A DNA stretch of 64,000 bases from Methanomassiliicoccales archaeon. Its GTDB lineage: Archaea > Thermoplasmatota > Thermoplasmata > Methanomassiliicoccales > JACIVX01. The notes beneath the pieces were generated by a model that was given only the letters and a program-made list of their open reading frames with translations, was not told the origin of the DNA and made no database searches. The stretch's first letter is position 1. Each line of letters starts with the position of its first letter. Location: assembly GCA_038850735.1 (NCBI GenBank), contig JAWCLO010000008.1, positions 10,899 to 74,898 on the forward strand, in the 5' to 3' direction. Of this stretch, positions 3,737 to 12,157 are shown in pieces. The translations under genes were made by a program, and so were the position numbers.

Positions 3737-4117
3737 TTACTCAATTTTCCACTTTGACGCCACTTTCACTATTAGGAAAATCACGAATGCCACTATCAAG
3801 AATGTGATCAGAGCAACGAGAAAGCTTCCGATCCCAAAGTATTGAGTGCCGACTTGGAATGTTAGCGTCGAAAGATTCTCTATACCAGGAAGCACAAGAC
3901 CAATGAGCGGCATCAGAAGATCCTTAACCAGCGATTGAACCAATACACCAAGGTACAAACCCAAAATGAAGGCAACAGCAAGCCCGAGAACCTTATATTT
4001 TGATATAAAATCCTTGAATTCGGCCCGTAGACCCTTCGGAGGCGGCGGTGCAGGTTTCGGTTCAAGAATTTCCCTTATCTTCTTCAGCTCCTGAAGCATT
4101 GCGTCTTCCTTTTCCAT
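3737..4117 (-). CDS. mscL: Large-conductance mechanosensitive channel MscL
   Basis: 126 aa with two TM helices. The TM1 region GLAVAFILGLYLGVLVQSLVKDLLMPLIG resembles MscL. Confidence 0.7.
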   Translation of the reverse strand: MEKEDAMLQELKKIREILEPKPAPPPPKGLRAEFKDFISKYKVLGLAVAFILGLYLGVLVQSLVKDLLMPLIGLVLPGIENLSTLTFQVGTQYFGIGSFLVALITFLIVAFVIFLIVKVASKWKIE

Positions 4118-4560
4118 GAGTTAGTAATTAGCATTAAATTTTATATAAATGCTTTCAGAGCTGGTTACACCATCCATCTGAATACGCTCATAATCGCTTG
4201 AATAAACTGGAAAGAAAGGAAGAACTCCATGGAAATTAATGCCGGAATTTACAAAAAATCTCCAGTTATGTTCTTCTTGATTAGATTCTTTGTTTACCTT
4301 CATTAAAATCTCAAATTGACCAGACTTATGAATTAAACAGCAATGAATTTGATCATATATAAGAAATAATAAATAAATTGGAGCTGGCTAAAATTTATAG
4401 ATAGTGAATAATGAAGCTCCGATTTGTTACCTGCTTATAAATCGTATTTTCCTAGGTTAATTAGCCTGAAGCGAATTCCAATTTGAGAGTCATTCACAAT
4501 CAAAATAAGATATGGAAAAGAGAAAAATAAACAAGGATACAAAAAATCATTCTCAGCGGC

Positions 4561-6024
4561 TCAAACATCATAGTAAAGAACAAACTCGTAGGGATGTGGT
4601 CGTAGCCTGACTTGATCATACTCTTTTCTTAATTTATAATCGATCCAGGTATCAATCAAATCTTTTGTAAATACACCTCCTTTCAATAGGAATTCATGAT
4701 CGTTCGCAAGTGCGTTCAAAGCATCATCGAGAGAACCTGGGACAGTCCTTATCTTTTTCGCTTTTTCCTTTGATAATTCAAATATATCAACATCCAGTGG
4801 TTCGCCAGGATCTATCCGCCTTTCTATTCCATCAATTCCGGCCATTAATATGGCAGCAAAGGCAAGATAAGGATTGCAACTTGGATCAGGAGGTCTGTAC
4901 TCGATGCGTTTCGATTTCGGATTCTGCGATGATACTGGGATTCTTATCGCTGCACTTCTGTTTCTCTGAGAATATACAAGATTCACGGGTGCCTCATAGC
5001 CCGGAACAAGCCTTCTATAGGAATTGGTGGTAGGAGAAGTAAGGGCAAGTAACGCTGGGGAATGGGTAAGTAATCCGCCAATAAAGTACATTGCGATGAG
5101 GCTTAATTGGGCATAGCCTTCTGCGTCATAAAACAGATTCACGTTATTCTTTGATAGGCTTATGTGAACATGCATTCCAGATCCATTATCTTGAAAGAGT
5201 GGCTTTGGCATGAAAGTCACTGTCTTATTTTGCTCCTTTGCGAGATTCTTCAAGATGTACTTATATAACACAAGGTGATCTGCCATTTTTACAAGCGACT
5301 GAAATTTTATGCCGATTTCACATTGACCACCAGTTGCTACTTCGTGATGGTGAACCTCCACATCAATTCCTGCTGCAGTCAATTTCGAGACAGCCTCTGA
5401 TCTGAACTCCATCAAAGAATCTATCGGCGGTGCTGGAAAATAACCCTCCTTGTACCGGGGCCTGTATCCCAGATTTGATCCTTCGCGTCCTGAATTCCAT
5501 GCACCTTCATGTGAATCTATGAAATAATATCCAGAGTTTTGGTTATGATCGAATCTAACGGAATCGAAAACGAAAAACTCTGCTTCTGGACCGAAGAACG
5601 CCGAGTCAGCTATGCCCTTTGATTTCATATAATTCTCTGCCTTCTGTGCAATATACCTTGGATCACGCCAGTATCGTTCCTTTGTGACTGGATCAAATAC
5701 ATTACAGATGAAGGATGCTGTGGGTGTCTTGCAAACTGGATCGATAAAGACAGTATTAATATCTGGAATAAGTATCATGTCGCTCTCATGAATTTCTGCA
5801 AAACCCCTTATGCTGGATCCATCGAAACCTATCCCTTCCTCAAGCAATCCAGTATTTAACCGTTGTGAAGGAATTGTTATATGTTGCAGTGTCCCTGGGA
5901 GATCTGTAAATTTAAAATCTACCATCTTAATTTCGCCCGTTTCGCAGAGAGATAGGATGTGGGATATCTTCGGCTTCTCTGCAGGAGCTTTTTCATCTCT
6001 CAAGTGAAATCGCTTTTCGAGCAA
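4561..6024 (-). CDS. glnA: Glutamine synthetase type I
   Basis: 487 aa. GS beta-grasp N-terminus ([10 protein letters not shown]), [10 protein letters not shown] and [13 protein letters not shown] motifs. Confidence 0.95.
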
Positions 6025-7421
6025 ACTTCATCACTCCGCGTCTTTGATGGATTTGTTGATAATCCCGATGATGCGCCACCTAGCGCAGGCAATTTCTTTA
6101 TCATATCTTCAAGTTTCAAACCAGTCAATGACTCTACTACAACAGGCAATTGGGAAATTATTCTTGTAATGTCATTAGTAAGCTTATTCGCACCTGCTGT
6201 AGTTCCGTCGTTTGAGATAATGATGACTTTATCAGTCTTTGATAGCGGAGCTGCAACCGCCTCTGCGAGTTCGGGCATAATTTGGATGAGCATCGAAGCG
6301 ATGGCGGCTTCGTTGTATTGCCTCCAAGCGTTTGCTTTTTTCTCCATTGTTTCTGCTTCAGATCTTCCCTTCTCCCGGATTACATCGGCCTCGGCGATAC
6401 CCGTGCTCTTTATAAACACGGATTTACCTTCTGCTTCTCTAAGCATCTTGATTTTATCGGCTTCTGCTATCTTTTCAGTCTTTATCCTTTCGGCCTCAGC
6501 AGGTTCAATGATTTCTGCTGCTAGTTCTAGCCTCTTTCTCGCAATTTCTTTTTCTGCGAGCGCTGCCATGAGTTCCTTTTCTACAATTCCCACACGAATC
6601 TCTTCCTCTTTAACAAGTTGTTCTGTTTTGAATTTCTGCAACTCGTATGCCAAATCGGATGCTGCCTTTTTCTGCGCGATTTCCGCATCGAGTTCAGCCT
6701 TTCTCACCTCATAATCTCTCTTTGCCGATTCTATATTAATGTCCGCTTGGTATCGAACTCTCTTAGCTTCCTCTTCAGCTATTGCTTCTCCTATAAGAGC
6801 GTCACGTTTTACTTGAGCGATCTTTGGACGTCCCAAGGAATCCAAATATCCCTGAGAGTCGGTAATGCTTCTTATAGTCAATGATAAGATCTCTAGTCCC
6901 ATTCTGCTTAAATCACAAGTTGAAGCAACTTTGACCTTTTCTGCAAATTCTTTTCTCTTTTGATAGATCTCTTCTGGTACGGAAGCGCTTATCGTCGCCC
7001 TCATATGTCCTTCTATTACATTATAGGCTGTTTTCAAAATATCATCTCTGGACTTTGACAGGAAGTGCTCGGCTGCCATTATTATCGATGGTTCGTCTCC
7101 TCGAATTTTAATTTGTGCTGTGGCTTCCACTGTAATAGGGACACCGTGGATCGAATAAACATCCTGCGTGCGTACTTCGAGATTCATTAGTTCCAGTGAC
7201 ATTTTGCGCACTTGTTCGATAATTGGCCAAACAAATGTTCCTCCTCCCTTAACTATTCTGAAGCCAGTAGTCTTCGTTTCAGCTTTATCGCGTATTCTTC
7301 TCTTTCTACCAGAGATTATAAGTACTTCATTAGGCCCACATTTTGTATATTTCGCAGCCCATACCAGTACTAACACGGCAGATATGGCTAAAATTCCTCC
7401 TATAAACCCATAATCAATCAC
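6000..7421 (-). CDS. Flotillin (SPFH/Band-7 domain plus long EA-rich coiled coil)
   Basis: N-terminal TM helix, an SPFH domain, then an E/A/K-rich flotillin repeat region. 473 aa. The stop lies 25 nt inside the glnA start. Confidence 0.85.
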
Positions 7422-8386
7422 GCTGATTCCCTCCTTATTTGCTCTAATTCAACAGAAGCTGAACCGCTAACAATTCCCAATTCATTGAGAATCCTCGTCA
7501 CATTACTCCGGAGCTTTTCCAAGTCCTCCCCAACGTAGATCCTTGGTCTTTCAGCTCCCAAAAGGATGTTGTCGATCTTATATACGGGGATGATATTGCG
7601 CTTACCCTCGCTGTAGTATCCCAACGAGGCTTCTGTACTCAAAAGAGTTTTTTTCAACTCTTTCCAAAAGAAATCATCCACTCTGTCCGCATAAAGGACC
7701 ATATTGGGAGAAAATGAGTGCTTCTGATTCAAGAATGAATTCACCGCATACCAGAGCTTAGCCAATTCAGAAATTTCAAATCTTTGTGATGGTTTGTTTA
7801 CGACGTCGAATATCAAAGACCTTATACCCACAAAGTCTTTGTGCGAGAATATTGGAAGCCACACTCTCTTTCGTGCGTCTCTAATAACCATCGCTGTAAG
7901 ATACAAAGATAAATCAGCCCAGAGAAAAAGTCCGAGGGTGACTTCAGCCTCGGATGAAATGATCTTTTTCGAAAGTAAATAATTTGTGCATTTTTCGAAT
8001 ACCTCGCCGATATCAGACCCAGTAATAAGCCTTTCATTTATTTCTATTGTTAATTTGTCGCCTTTTAGATATATTGGGAATCTTGTTCCAGTCGGAATGA
8101 TGAGTGAGTAGTATGGAAGAGTGCCCTGTCCCTTGAGCAGCTCGATTGCTTCATTAACGGCCCCAAGCAACATCTGGAGATTTCCTTTTTCGATCTTGTA
8201 TCCCGCAATTTCTACTGAATAAATTTCTTTCAATAAGGGATGTAGACTGTTTGGCTTCCAGTATACAGGAAGACATGCAGAACGACCGGGTACAATATCT
8301 CCAAGATCCACTTTCAAGAAATATCTAGGCGCTATTTCACCGATTTCATAATCAAGATTCTTGCAAACCTCTATTTGGGGGCTCAC
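7418..8386 (-). CDS. Hypothetical protein (322 aa), no recognisable motif
   Basis: Long ORF with 4-nt start/stop overlaps to both the upstream PII gene and the downstream flotillin gene. I recognise no family. Confidence 0.6.
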   Translation of the reverse strand: MSPQIEVCKNLDYEIGEIAPRYFLKVDLGDIVPGRSACLPVYWKPNSLHPLLKEIYSVEIAGYKIEKGNLQMLLGAVNEAIELLKGQGTLPYYSLIIPTGTRFPIYLKGDKLTIEINERLITGSDIGEVFEKCTNYLLSKKIISSEAEVTLGLFLWADLSLYLTAMVIRDARKRVWLPIFSHKDFVGIRSLIFDVVNKPSQRFEISELAKLWYAVNSFLNQKHSFSPNMVLYADRVDDFFWKELKKTLLSTEASLGYYSEGKRNIIPVYKIDNILLGAERPRIYVGEDLEKLRSNVTRILNELGIVSGSASVELEQIRRESA

Positions 8387-8730
8387 AGTACATCCTCTCC
8401 TTCTTCTCCCGTACGTATCCTTATTGCTCTCTCAACGGGTGAGACAAAAATTATGCCGTCACCTACATTCCCTGTCCATGCGTGTTTCATTATCTCGCTA
8501 CAAGCCGCTGAAACGAACTCATCCTTCACAAAGGTCTCAAGTTTCGCCTTGGGTACTCCCGCTTGAGAATATTCATAGGCCCTCCACTGTTGTTTGAAAT
8601 CCTTCTGCTCACCAATTCCTACCACACCAAGAATTGTCATGCCTGATATGCCAATTGATTCCAACGCATTCTTCACATGCCCAAGCCTTTCGGGTCTCAG
8701 TACAGCCTCGATCTTTTTCACAGATTTCAC
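8383..8730 (-). CDS. PII-family signal protein with a divergent T-loop
   Basis: PII core is present (KKIEAVLRPERL ... GDGIIFVSPVERAIRIRTGEEG). The T-loop reads GIGEQKDFKQQWRAYEYSQAGVPK instead of the usual GRGxQKG...Y pattern. Confidence 0.75.
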   Translation of the reverse strand: MKSVKKIEAVLRPERLGHVKNALESIGISGMTILGVVGIGEQKDFKQQWRAYEYSQAGVPKAKLETFVKDEFVSAACSEIMKHAWTGNVGDGIIFVSPVERAIRIRTGEEGEDVL

Positions 8731-9125
8731 CCCCTTGGTACTGATTTTTCTTGTTCTAGACCTGTATAGCTTGAAACGGTTGCGATCGCGATTTCTCCGC
8801 TTTCACCAGTGCGAATTTTCTTGGCATTTTCAACTGGAAGAACGAATATTTTACCATCACCGATTTCACCAGTTCTCGCAGCTCTGCAGATCGACGATAT
8901 TATTCGATCGACATCACTATCAGCTACGACAACTTCGATCTTAATTTTCGGAAGAAGATCAATGCGATAGGTTCCCACTCTATGCGAAAATTCAAGACCT
9001 CTCTGCTGGCCCCTACCTTTTACTTCGTAGGTTGTTAGCCCTGGAATTCCTGTTTTTTCGAGTTCCTCTTTTACTAATGCAAATCTTTCTTTCCTGATTA
9101 TCGCCTCAATTTTCTTCATCACCAA
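8727..9125 (-). CDS. glnK: PII nitrogen regulatory protein (GlnK-like) with a short C-terminal extension
   Basis: Canonical PII sequence: KKIEAIIRKERF, T-loop GRGQQRG, GDGKIFVLPVENAKKIRTGE. It lies directly downstream of amt. Confidence 0.9.
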   Translation of the reverse strand: MVMKKIEAIIRKERFALVKEELEKTGIPGLTTYEVKGRGQQRGLEFSHRVGTYRIDLLPKIKIEVVVADSDVDRIISSICRAARTGEIGDGKIFVLPVENAKKIRTGESGEIAIATVSSYTGLEQEKSVPRG

Positions 9126-9134
9126 CCTCCATTA

Positions 9135-10448
9135 TTACGAATACGCACTTTCCCCATGCTGAATAATATCCGCACCTATTCTCTCCTCATCCTTGGTCAA
9201 TCTAATCTGTGTGAATAGACCAATCATTTTCATCAGAACAAATGTCATAACGAATGAATATACCCAGACGGAAATTATCGCAATCACTTGAGCCATGAAC
9301 AGATCAGTATTACCCGAGATTAGCCCATCATTTCCTGCAGAATTTACCGCAGTGGTCGCGAAGATGCCTGTAGCTAATGCTCCCCAGGTTCCTCCAATAC
9401 CATGTACTCCCCATACATCAAGCGCATCATCCACTGCAATTTTTCGCCTTGCTATTATGCCTAGATAACAAGAAATGCCTGCCCCGATTCCTATGATAAT
9501 AGATCCAGCAACATCGACAAACCCAGCTGCCGGAGTGATTGCGACAAGCCCTGCAACGCCACCGGTGATTAATCCCAACACTCCTGGTCTGCCCATGTGC
9601 AACCAACTAATGAATCCCCATGTAATCGCTCCAGTTGCCGCAGCAACTTGAGTTACAACAAAGGCATTTACAGCAATTTCGTTTGCAGCAAGTGCACTCC
9701 CAGCATTAAATCCAAACCATCCTATCCAAAGGAGCGCACCTCCAAGCACAACCATTGGAATGTTGTGCGGCACTTCGATACCGTGTCCGATAGTGTATCT
9801 CTTTCCAAGTACCAGCGCTGCTGCGAGAGCTGAAACCCCTGATGCAATGTGAACAACCGTACCGCCGGCAAAATCCAAGGCACCTAACTTACCTATCCAT
9901 CCTCCGTTTCCCCACACCCAGTGAGCTATCGGGACATACACGATGAGCGTCCATAAGATAACAAATGCTATTAAGGCCCGTAATCTCATGCGCTCTGCAA
10001 TTGCACCAAGAATCAAATTGACAGTAATAATTGCGAAAACACATTGAAAAATCATGTATGCGAGATGCGGGATGGAAGTCGCGTAGATTCCACTCGGTTG
10101 CAGGCCAACTCCCAACAAAATGACGTGGTCTAAATTGCCTATAACCCCGCTTACGTCCTGTCCAAATGCCAAAGAATAACCGACGACGACCCAAACGATT
10201 GTGACTATGCCTATAACAAGGATGCATTGGGCCAATATTGAGAGTACACTTTCTTTTCGCAACATTCCACCATAAAATAAAGCAACACCCGGTGACATTA
10301 TGAAAACAAGTGCCGTTGACACTAGAATCCATGCGGTGTCCGCTTCATCCACTTGATTTCCTTCGGCCGATACGACTGGACACATTAGGACAAGAAAGGA
10401 GATACCGAGCAGGGCAATCAGCGTATAATTGAGCCAGCCACGTTTCAT
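9135..10448 (-). CDS. amt: Ammonium transporter Amt
   Basis: 437 aa polytopic membrane protein. Amt signatures DFAGGTVVHIASG and WGVHGIGGTWGA. Confidence 0.95.
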   Translation of the reverse strand: MKRGWLNYTLIALLGISFLVLMCPVVSAEGNQVDEADTAWILVSTALVFIMSPGVALFYGGMLRKESVLSILAQCILVIGIVTIVWVVVGYSLAFGQDVSGVIGNLDHVILLGVGLQPSGIYATSIPHLAYMIFQCVFAIITVNLILGAIAERMRLRALIAFVILWTLIVYVPIAHWVWGNGGWIGKLGALDFAGGTVVHIASGVSALAAALVLGKRYTIGHGIEVPHNIPMVVLGGALLWIGWFGFNAGSALAANEIAVNAFVVTQVAAATGAITWGFISWLHMGRPGVLGLITGGVAGLVAITPAAGFVDVAGSIIIGIGAGISCYLGIIARRKIAVDDALDVWGVHGIGGTWGALATGIFATTAVNSAGNDGLISGNTDLFMAQVIAIISVWVYSFVMTFVLMKMIGLFTQIRLTKDEERIGADIIQHGESAYS

Positions 10449-10972
10449 AAAGCTCGCCCCAATACTACTTTTTTGTTCGATTTATTCAGTCGCTGCATTC
10501 CAACTTTCTTGCGATATTTAATTTCATCATGTACAATTAAATTGAACATGTGTAGATGATTATACAAAGTAATATATATCTGCTATCTTAATGAATTATA
10601 TTGCAAATATACGACTAGATAATGTAAAAATGAATAATATATCGGATCAAATTGCAGTTATCATCTATTTAAGAACCTGAGAACTTACTAAAATTTTCAA
10701 ATCGCGATTAACCCGCCTCGAAACGCTTAGGTCGATTGCGGAATAAGATTAGTGACTTTTGAACAAAGCAAGTAGGCAATAATTGTATTAAATCAAGAGG
10801 GAGCTCTGAATTTTAGTATTGTGATTTTGTTGCCCTCATTTTATAGCGCAACCTATCAATAGTCAATTTATAAACGGTAATTCGATTAAATCATGAATTC
10901 TGAAATATTCGGAAAAAATTCCATGAATTTTGACAAATAAAATTTATGTTATTTTTTAATGATTAATTATGC

Positions 10973-12157
10973 TTACTCTTGAGCTATAATCTTCCGACTT
11001 AGATTTTCCGCAAGCTGGACGACACTTTCATGGTCATTTTCAGTTGGAGGCCCATTTATCTCGATTGCACCTACCAACTCAATCTTTGTTGGTTCAAATA
11101 TCTCCATAGCTTGCTTAGCCGCACCGCCTCCCCAACCGTATGAACTCAAAACGGCTACAAATTTTGCAGGTGGCTTTAGAGCCTTAGTAAGCATCGCAAT
11201 ATAAAGTGCCACTGGATGAAGTCCGCCAAGAACCGTAGGTGCCCCGAGTACGATAGCTCTAGAATCGACCAAATCCTCTGCAATATTCCCTATGTCAGAA
11301 TTCGCAATGTTGTAGAGTCTTACATTGATGCCGTTTGATTGTAACACTTCTACCATCGTATCGATCATTGCTGCAGTTGAATTCCACATTGAGGCATACA
11401 CAACGAGTACCTTTTTCTCTGTGTCTCCAGCCGTCCATTTCTTATAATATTCAAGTATTCTCTTTGGATTCCTGTGAATCGGCCCGTGACTGGGAGCTAT
11501 TAAGTCCACCTCAATCTTTTCGATTTTTTCGAGTGCTTTCTGCCCCATTTTCCTGAACGGCATCATGATTTCTCCAAAATAACGCTTGGCAATGGATGGA
11601 AGCTGATCTACCTCATCGTCGTAGAAGCCAAAAGCAGTATGCATTCCCAGGAAGTCGCAGGGAAAGAGCACTTTGTTTTCTTCAAGATATGTAAACATGG
11701 TTTCAGGCCAGTGAAGCCACGGAGCATCAATGAATCTGAGCGTCTTGCCACCTAGATCAATCTGGTCACCCTCTTTCACAACAATCGTCCTGTCTGGTGG
11801 AACACCATAGTAAATTCCTGCGGCTTTGGCACCTTTTTCAGTCGCAATGAGTTTAGCCTTCTTCGCTGCCTGCATGATGAATGGAATACCGCCGGCGTGA
11901 TCTGGTTCCGCATGATTCATGACGACATAATCGATTGACGAGATGTCGACGAGACTCCCTATTTTTGCAGCCCAGTGTTCTTCAAAACCAGGATTCACGG
12001 TGTCAATAAGCGCGATTTTTTCCTCTCCCCTGACGAGGTACGCGTTATATGAAGTGCCATGTGGTAAGGGTATTAATGCATCAAATAATCGTCGCCACCA
12101 ATCTTTAATACCAACCCAATAAACGGAGTCTGAAATTTCTCTTACATCATACTTCAT
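10973..12157 (-). CDS. fprA: Flavodiiron protein (FprA-type O2/NO reductase)
   Basis: N-terminal MBL-like di-iron domain (NHAEPDHAGG) plus a C-terminal flavodoxin-like domain. 394 aa. Confidence 0.85.
   Translation of the reverse strand: MKYDVREISDSVYWVGIKDWWRRLFDALIPLPHGTSYNAYLVRGEEKIALIDTVNPGFEEHWAAKIGSLVDISSIDYVVMNHAEPDHAGGIPFIMQAAKKAKLIATEKGAKAAGIYYGVPPDRTIVVKEGDQIDLGGKTLRFIDAPWLHWPETMFTYLEENKVLFPCDFLGMHTAFGFYDDEVDQLPSIAKRYFGEIMMPFRKMGQKALEKIEKIEVDLIAPSHGPIHRNPKRILEYYKKWTAGDTEKKVLVVYASMWNSTAAMIDTMVEVLQSNGINVRLYNIANSDIGNIAEDLVDSRAIVLGAPTVLGGLHPVALYIAMLTKALKPPAKFVAVLSSYGWGGGAAKQAMEIFEPTKIELVGAIEINGPPTENDHESVVQLAENLSRKIIAQE

Follow-up and report, generated by a model that had tools for sequence, protein, structure and literature searches.

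A compact array of six genes occupies positions 4561 to 10448, on the minus strand, of the 64,000-nt stretch from a Methanomassiliicoccales archaeon that was analyzed here as a whole and is called the window. From 5' to 3', the array encodes an ammonium transporter (Amt), two PII proteins, a 322-residue protein (orf322, hereafter orfX), a flotillin, and a glutamine synthetase (GS), with overlaps or gaps of no more than 15 nt between neighbors. Comparison with related loci indicates that orfX and the flotillin probably function with Amt and GS in nitrogen assimilation. More specifically, orfX might be the operon partner of the flotillin, an adaptor that would tie both Amt/GlnK and GS to a patch of membrane bounded by the flotillin. 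We give this favored reading a probability of roughly 0.45, and we infer all of the physical contacts and the functional outcome that it entails. A preliminary description of the locus had proposed that a flotillin scaffold is co-expressed with the Amt/PII/GS module and possibly organizes or regulates it, and the evidence assembled here supports that proposal with a shift in emphasis, as the conserved pivot among the loci compared is orfX and not the flotillin. Judged by their profile matches, Amt, PII, GS, and the flotillin are ordinary members of their families, and orfX is a new protein family.

The neighborhood was explored using orfX as the sole search handle. Five relatives turned up when 5.8 billion proteins were searched by word index, 94 family members (55 of them at E <= 1e-10) in an exhaustive profile search among 1.84 billion cluster representatives, and at least seven proteins in a word-indexed search with a 52-sequence profile. 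Genomic contexts were obtained by exact look-ups, a GTDB scan, and a metagenome scan with a nine-sequence alignment, and all loci were annotated uniformly by tblastn. In this way 27 loci were recovered (L001-L027; P numbers below denote proteins of the orfX family). In the window and 12 further locus groups, orfX is immediately followed by a flotillin gene of the same orientation; the two genes overlap by up to 4 nt or are separated by up to 51 nt. The archaeal groups are L001/L004/L012, L005/L013, L006/L015, L014, L007, and L016, and the bacterial groups are L008, L021/L022, L023, L024, L025, L026, and L027. Identity between the orfX proteins of these lineages does not exceed 62%, save for two related archaeal groups at 77%. 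Genomes generally contain one or two flotillin genes, and since a flotillin gene follows orfX in about a dozen lineages, the pairing cannot be due to chance. Far from being peculiar to this genome, a possibility that the preliminary description had allowed for, the pair thus recurs in archaea and in four bacterial phyla.

Among archaea, the order amt-PII-PII-orfX-flotillin-glnA is found, as far as the contig ends, in metagenome-assembled genomes of Methanomassiliicoccales/Thermoplasmata and in metagenome contigs (L001, L004-L006, L012-L015), PII-orfX-flotillin(-glnA) in L007 and L016, and amt-PII-orfX-glnA, without flotillin, in L002, L018, and L019. The synteny check called for in the preliminary description came out in favor of its proposal, in that all related loci of Methanomassiliicoccales/Thermoplasmata that reach far enough, apart from the last three, have orfX and the flotillin between PII and glnA. 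In a neighbor-joining tree of orfX, these flotillin-less loci form a single clade nested among flotillin-bearing lineages, which argues for an ancestral orfX-flotillin pair and a single loss. In Actinomycetota, Armatimonadota, Thermodesulfobacteriota, and Chloroflexota, the pair adjoins amt and/or glnA in rearranged orders. These are amt-PII-orfX-flotillin-glnA in Solirubrobacteraceae (Actinomycetota; L008) and in a metagenome contig (L024), amt-orfX-flotillin-glnA (L023) and orfX-flotillin-glnA (L021/L022) in Armatimonadota, amt-orfX-flotillin-PII-glnA in Thermodesulfobacteriota (L025), regulator-glnA-amt-orfX-flotillin in another metagenome contig (L026), and regulator-glnA-Na/H exchanger-amt-orfX-flotillin in Thermoflexus hugenholtzii (Chloroflexota; L027, near 1.391-1.410 Mb of the 3.3-Mb record CP076326.1). 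The taxonomy of Thermoflexus and of the Solirubrobacteraceae was checked.

Since the order of the genes is shuffled and their set retained, plain inherited synteny or en bloc hitchhiking is unlikely to explain the association. It is very improbable that orfX and flotillin are a mobile cassette devoid of functional link with its surroundings, inserted into nitrogen operons and spread horizontally with them. The identities between the window and the Solirubrobacteraceae locus (56% for glnA, 45% for flotillin, 31% for orfX) are high throughout the block and would fit en bloc transfer, and the loss of the flotillin gene from one clade with the rest undisturbed is also what a cassette might show. 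However, en bloc hitchhiking does not predict different gene orders with a constant gene set across phyla, start/stop overlaps are found among the junctions, Amt::orfX fusion proteins exist, and in the window the pair is flanked by no transposase, integrase, or repeats, the local base composition of the block being unremarkable. As regards other neighbors of the module, a glutamine-dependent NAD synthetase gene (CN_hydrolase and NAD_synthase domains) adjoins it in L001 (3-1712, minus strand), L023 (3634-5406), and L024 (12346-14055), and in Thermoflexus (L027, 11773-19227) it is followed by the glutamine-consuming purine biosynthesis genes purL and purF.

Several members of the family link orfX to the membrane. 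In the 748-residue protein P0059 (L020, 813-3059), a complete Amt (residues 14-416) is followed by a Pro/Ala-rich linker of about 45 residues and by an orfX domain (467-682); a second Amt::orfX fusion, P0048, is truncated. In 9 of the 94 orfX representatives, including those of Armatimonadota and Thermoflexus, an N-terminal transmembrane helix is followed by basic residues and a long, low-complexity linker, which is Pro/Ala-rich in some of the bacterial proteins. The fusions and the anchored forms place this domain on the cytoplasmic side of the membrane. Where orfX is tethered, in the four loci L020, L021, L023, and L027, no PII gene is visible, and orfX is devoid of the helix in all PII-bearing loci. 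At the membrane, Amt is a docking site for PII proteins (PMC3831643, PMC4274968). Taken together with the lack of PII in the tethered loci, this suggests that the co-encoded PII is a conditional tether for the helix-less orfX of archaea. A strict rule whereby orfX is held by either a helix or PII was considered and rejected because of two exceptions, L026 and L011, and the relation is a tendency only. A group of orfX proteins that includes P0041 (L024), P0042, P0043, P0065, P0081, P0083, P0089, and P0091 has a Trp-rich N-terminal motif, LWxWxRxVIxD, which could be an amphipathic membrane or docking peptide.

The proximity of amt, which in most loci immediately precedes orfX or PII-orfX and can even form a fusion with orfX, might also mean that orfX and the flotillin form a stabilization or quality-control module for Amt, in the manner of HflK/C-FtsH or of FloA protection, with GS nearby through co-regulation only. 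SPFH assemblies do enclose and regulate membrane clients (PMC11260169, PMC12407830), and bacterial flotillin is reported to confine and stabilize unfolded membrane proteins (PMC11222466). Nevertheless, this explanation appears unlikely in view of the loci that have no amt gene within 7 kb (orfX-flotillin-glnA in L021/L022) or within 6 kb upstream (PII-orfX-flotillin-glnA in L007). In addition, glnA overlaps or abuts the flotillin gene in several phyla, and the cluster harbors no protease or chaperone gene.

The orfX protein (7418-8386, minus strand) belongs to what is, in sequence terms, a small family of 94 cluster representatives without relatives in Pfam, NCBIfam, or the PDB. Searches of Pfam and NCBIfam with orfX gave no match, none of orfX and four homologs matched Pfam at E <= 10, and 52 family members matched Pfam only through fused domains, none of the 52 with the NfeD domain (PF01957). 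A PADLOC search returned nothing credible, and the orfX profile found no relative among PDB sequences (best E 0.59). Confident AlphaFold2 models were obtained for the full-length protein (predicted local distance difference test, pLDDT, 82; predicted template modeling score, pTM, 0.74) and for its N-terminal half, residues 1-145, from an 18-sequence alignment (pLDDT 89). The model predicts four units, each made of several β strands followed by one helix, and the units are homologous repeats according to hhalign: of the six pairs of units compared, five gave probabilities of 90-95%. The Foldseek check suggested in the preliminary description was run and did not place the predicted fold, as searches with the full model (PDB, BFVD) and the N-terminal half (PDB) returned nothing at E < 0.02 and no template modeling (TM) score above 0.23. 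A DNA sliding-clamp-like or tandem PH-like fold was considered for the full model (best E 0.095, TM <= 0.15), for which about 20 of the top 50 full-length PDB matches were sliding clamps. The clamp-like fold was dropped because these matches vanished at the domain level, in the search with the N-terminal half (best E 0.12, TM <= 0.23).

The best-conserved block of the family is found in repeat 1, PV[YF]WRPN..HPLLKEIY..E[IV]AG..[LI]EKGNL, and it is rich in polar positions, the motif comprising W43, N46, H49, K53, E54, Y56, E66, K67, and N69. Such a motif would suit a protein with a mainly sensory or regulatory role toward Amt and/or GS, be it a PII target or a PII-like, metabolite-binding effector, which the flotillin only concentrates at the membrane. 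That explanation is possible, if on the doubtful side. It would account for the fusion of orfX to a PDC/dCache-type ligand-binding domain in a Thermodesulfobacteriota subfamily, for the retention of orfX between PII and glnA where the flotillin has been lost (L002, L018, L019), for its position in the slot following amt-glnK, which is that of glnD in the actinobacterial amtB-glnK-glnD arrangement, and for the special subclade, with altered T-loop and B-loop, to which the adjoining PII belongs. On the other hand, no known ligand-binding or enzymatic fold was recognized in orfX by the profile and Foldseek searches, and flotillin is kept beside orfX in nearly all lineages, including L021/L022, which have neither PII nor amt, and a protein that only regulates Amt/PII would have no need of it. 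The anchored and Amt-fused forms of orfX suit a structural tether equally well.

A number of observations weigh against orfX being an adaptor. The archaeal clade of L002, L018, and L019 has no adjacent flotillin gene, and in the loci of a distant orfX clade (L009 3114-4115, L010 219-1253, L011 494-1528; P0055, P0099; 17-25% identity) neither flotillin nor glnA nor PII is found nearby, orfX coming after amt in L011 and standing alone in L009. The proteins of this distant clade may have a different or reduced role. In L026 and L011, orfX has no transmembrane helix and no PII gene is visible. In L025 (1700-3097; P0105/P0021 cluster, Thermodesulfobacteriota), orfX is C-terminally fused to a PDC/dCache-like sensor domain; the protein has no transmembrane segment, and the PII gene of this locus comes after the flotillin gene and not before orfX. 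This fusion hints at sensing rather than scaffolding. The predicted fold of orfX, moreover, matches nothing known by Foldseek. Finally, GS has approximately 445-448 residues in L026 and L027 vs. 480-500 elsewhere, and this variation in the type of GS argues against a specific, co-evolved docking surface on the enzyme.

The preliminary description had reported six packed genes on one strand, and both the open reading frames and the profile identities of their products confirm this. The amt gene (9135-10448, minus strand, as are all genes of the block) codes for a 437-residue protein that matches Ammonium_transp (PF00909, E 6.2e-126) over residues 39-436 and scores 446 bits with TIGR00836, whose cutoff is 343. 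The first PII protein, PIIa (8727-9125), and the second, PIIb (8383-8730), both match PF00543 (E 5.5e-30 and 104 bits for PIIa, E 1.9e-24 and 86 bits for PIIb, with a cutoff of 25 bits). The junctions around the PII genes are close, although not by the distances given initially. PIIa most likely starts at ATG 9119, as there is a GGAGG sequence (9130-9126) 6 nt upstream and homologs start with MKKIEAI, and its gap after amt would then be 15 nt instead of 9. PIIb most likely starts at GTG 8721, since its homologs have 112 residues and start with MKK[IV]EA, and a 5-nt gap would then replace the 4-nt overlap between the two PII genes. The block remains a compact unit despite both corrections. The 4-nt overlaps proposed for the next two junctions stand, GTGA being common to the ends of PIIb and orfX (8386-8383) and to those of orfX and the flotillin gene (7421-7418), as read from the sequence. 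The 25-nt overlap of the last two genes was also verified, with the TTG start of glnA at 6024 inside the flotillin gene (stop 6002-6000) and a GGAG sequence 9 nt upstream.

PIIa is a near-canonical, GlnK-like protein with a C-terminal extension of about 20 residues. PIIb is divergent, its T-loop being G-I-G-E-Q-K-D-F-K-Q-Q-W-R-A and its B-loop GDGIIF instead of GDGKIF. Relative to the E. coli reference sequence, positions 38 and 90 are changed to E and I, and Q39, K58, R101, and R103 are kept. An alignment places the PII proteins encoded directly 5' of orfX in flotillin-bearing archaeal loci in a distinct subclade, with the signatures G-x-G-E-Q-K-[ED]-F-K-Q-Q-W-R-A and GDG[IVM][IV]F (L004 6316-6651, L007 6197-6532, L013 6654-6989, L014 2308-2643, L015 5651-5986, L016 82-417). 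Because the canonical Lys90 and Arg38 are missing, the binding of nucleotides or of 2-oxoglutarate may be altered in this subclade. In L008 (9543-9878, 9914-10999) and the related L024 (5656-6039, 6059-7288), PII has a conserved terminal extension, ...GWGY.

The flotillin (473 residues; 6000-7421) is identified by its Band_7 (E 2e-25; 90.3 bits vs. a cutoff of 23.6) and Flot (34.2 bits vs. 27) matches. It is FloT-like only, as its score with the B. subtilis-type FloT equivalog NF058507 is 355 bits vs. a cutoff of 700. A hydrophobic N-terminal stretch, residues ~5-23 as read from the translation, would provide the expected anchor and is followed by the SPFH domain and an EA-rich, coiled-coil flotillin region. 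The absence of an NfeD partner, already remarked on, was borne out by a profile search of the genes of the block and of the two genes flanking it, none of which matched. The last gene, glnA (4561-6024), codes for a 487-residue type I GS that scores 652 bits with TIGR00653 (cutoff 429) and matches both PF03951 (Gln-synt_N) and PF00120 (Gln-synt_C). Its 5' end (5965-6024) encodes an N-terminal extension of approximately 19-22 residues, the match to the GlnA model beginning at residue 23, and tblastn alignments start at query residues 1-8 in archaeal homologs and in the GS of Solirubrobacteraceae.

An AT-rich spacer of 524 nt (10449-10972) lies 5' of amt and presumably contains the promoter and the regulatory region for the six genes. 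The sense strand of the block is free of runs of six or more T. The first such run downstream, a T6 run at 4546-4541, lies 15 nt past the glnA stop and is likely an archaeal-type terminator that ends the operon. From the overlaps and the absence of internal T-runs we infer that the six genes are co-transcribed. A second T6 run (10918-10913) is found 3' of the upstream flavodiiron gene. A search of positions 4200-11100 gave no match to Rfam families, and the GGAA-N6-TTCC motif, the NrpR-type operator of methanogens, is not present upstream of amt. The window contains no paralogs of amt, PII, orfX, flotillin, or glnA elsewhere. The block is flanked downstream, beyond the T-run and after a gap of 443 nt, by a gene for an MscL mechanosensitive channel (3737-4117, minus strand), and upstream by the flavodiiron gene (10973-12157, minus strand), with ODP metallo-β-lactamase and flavodoxin domains. 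Neither gene recurs among the related loci examined.

If orfX is indeed an adaptor, the six genes would represent one nitrogen-limitation operon in which Amt, a GlnK-type PII, and GS are joined by a membrane-organizing orfX-flotillin pair. The soluble, four-repeat cytoplasmic domain of orfX would always be held at the inner face of the membrane, by its own helix and linker, by fusion to the C terminus of Amt, or by an Amt-docked PII, the latter being the most likely route for the helix-less archaeal form. With its gene in the position of NfeD, directly 5' of the flotillin gene and often overlapping it, orfX would link Amt(-GlnK) and GS to the flotillin patch. Ammonium entering through Amt would be captured by GS beside the pore, which would limit the back-diffusion of NH3, with PII in control. 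The flotillin might even build a cytoplasmic dome over Amt trimers, with orfX tethered below the channel and recruiting GS into or onto this dome, yielding a membrane-bound ammonium-assimilation nanocompartment that traps NH3/NH4+ and prevents back-leak. We consider this last elaboration improbable.

To our knowledge, no clear conserved client of prokaryotic flotillins has emerged despite years of study. The orfX cluster names candidates, namely the ammonium channel, PII, and GS, and it reveals a previously unannotated family of putative adaptors that are sometimes physically fused to the channel. Our search of the literature on flotillin/SPFH proteins in connection with GS, Amt, GlnK, or GlnA brought up no description of a flotillin-ammonium-assimilation linkage, of the orfX family, or of Amt::orfX fusions. 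A scaffold that co-localizes Amt and GS would, if real, directly answer how futile NH3 cycling is avoided, and Amt coupled to GS, at very low ammonium concentrations, and a prokaryotic SPFH-Amt association would offer an evolutionary angle on the stomatin-RhAG connection of human red cells. Should a flotillin dome exist, its design would be an ancient one, common to archaea and to bacteria of several phyla, and for the first time a prokaryotic flotillin would have a defined set of physiological clients. These ideas are testable, since Thermoflexus hugenholtzii, which carries the module, has been cultured and its genome record is complete.

Among known systems, the NfeD-SPFH pairs, such as YuaF-FloT and YqeZ-FloA of B. 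subtilis and PH1510-PH1511 of Pyrococcus, resemble the present one in that the gene of the partner lies directly 5' of the SPFH gene and is often translationally coupled to it. The C-terminal domain of PH1510 has been described as a scaffold that assembles with stomatin (PMC4208085). Like short NfeD proteins, bacterial orfX combines a membrane anchor with a β-rich soluble domain. Nevertheless, orfX holds the NfeD position, at close spacing, without being an NfeD protein, as it has neither the PF01957 domain nor a ClpP-type protease signature, and no NfeD structure figures among its top Foldseek matches. It is built of four homologous strands-plus-helix repeats and is tied to amt, PII, and glnA, whereas NfeD is not.

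The succession of amt and one or more PII genes recalls the AmtB-GlnK sequestration complex. A precedent for a further partner is the AmtB-GlnK-TnrA system of B. subtilis, in which the nitrogen factor TnrA is parked at the membrane via Amt-GlnK. In contrast with these systems, flotillin and orfX lie here between PII and glnA, the PII beside orfX is atypical, and several bacterial orfX modules have no PII gene at all. Regulation involving GlnK and GS is documented in archaea (PMC11957540). Precedents also include work on how AmtB is coupled metabolically to GS and on what the futile cycling of NH3 costs (Javelle 2005 and Boogerd 2011, as cited in PMC10433425).

Some SPFH proteins form domes around particular membrane clients, as in the HflK/C-FtsH assembly and the flotillin-1/2 cage (PMC11260169). 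Stomatin encloses AQP1 and the trimeric urea channel UT-B, and in overhydrated stomatocytosis a link has been noted between stomatin and RhAG, of the Amt/Rh family (PMC12407830). Amt resembles UT-B in being a trimeric channel that conducts a small nitrogenous solute. The differences are that encapsulation in the present case is hypothetical, that the client would be chosen via a novel adaptor, and that the gene set includes a soluble enzyme, GS. A parallel in gene organization is a flotillin gene that is consistently adjacent to, and co-transcribed with, that of one membrane protein, a rhodopsin paralog, across taxa (PMC10308929). This dedicated client is not Amt/GS, and the cluster contains neither an orfX-like partner nor nitrogen genes.

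In the actinobacteria Corynebacterium, Streptomyces, and Mycobacterium, amt-glnK is followed by a third gene, the operon being amtB-glnK-glnD, and Solirubrobacteraceae (L008) carry orfX in the glnD slot. Unlike GlnD, orfX has no nucleotidyltransferase, HD, or ACT domains, and flotillin and glnA come next. SPFH operons dedicated to one client are a known kind of system, and so are amt-glnK-X operons. The recurrence in distant bacteria of the combination of Amt, PII, and GS with a flotillin and orfX points to an undescribed, membrane-organized way of handling ammonium.

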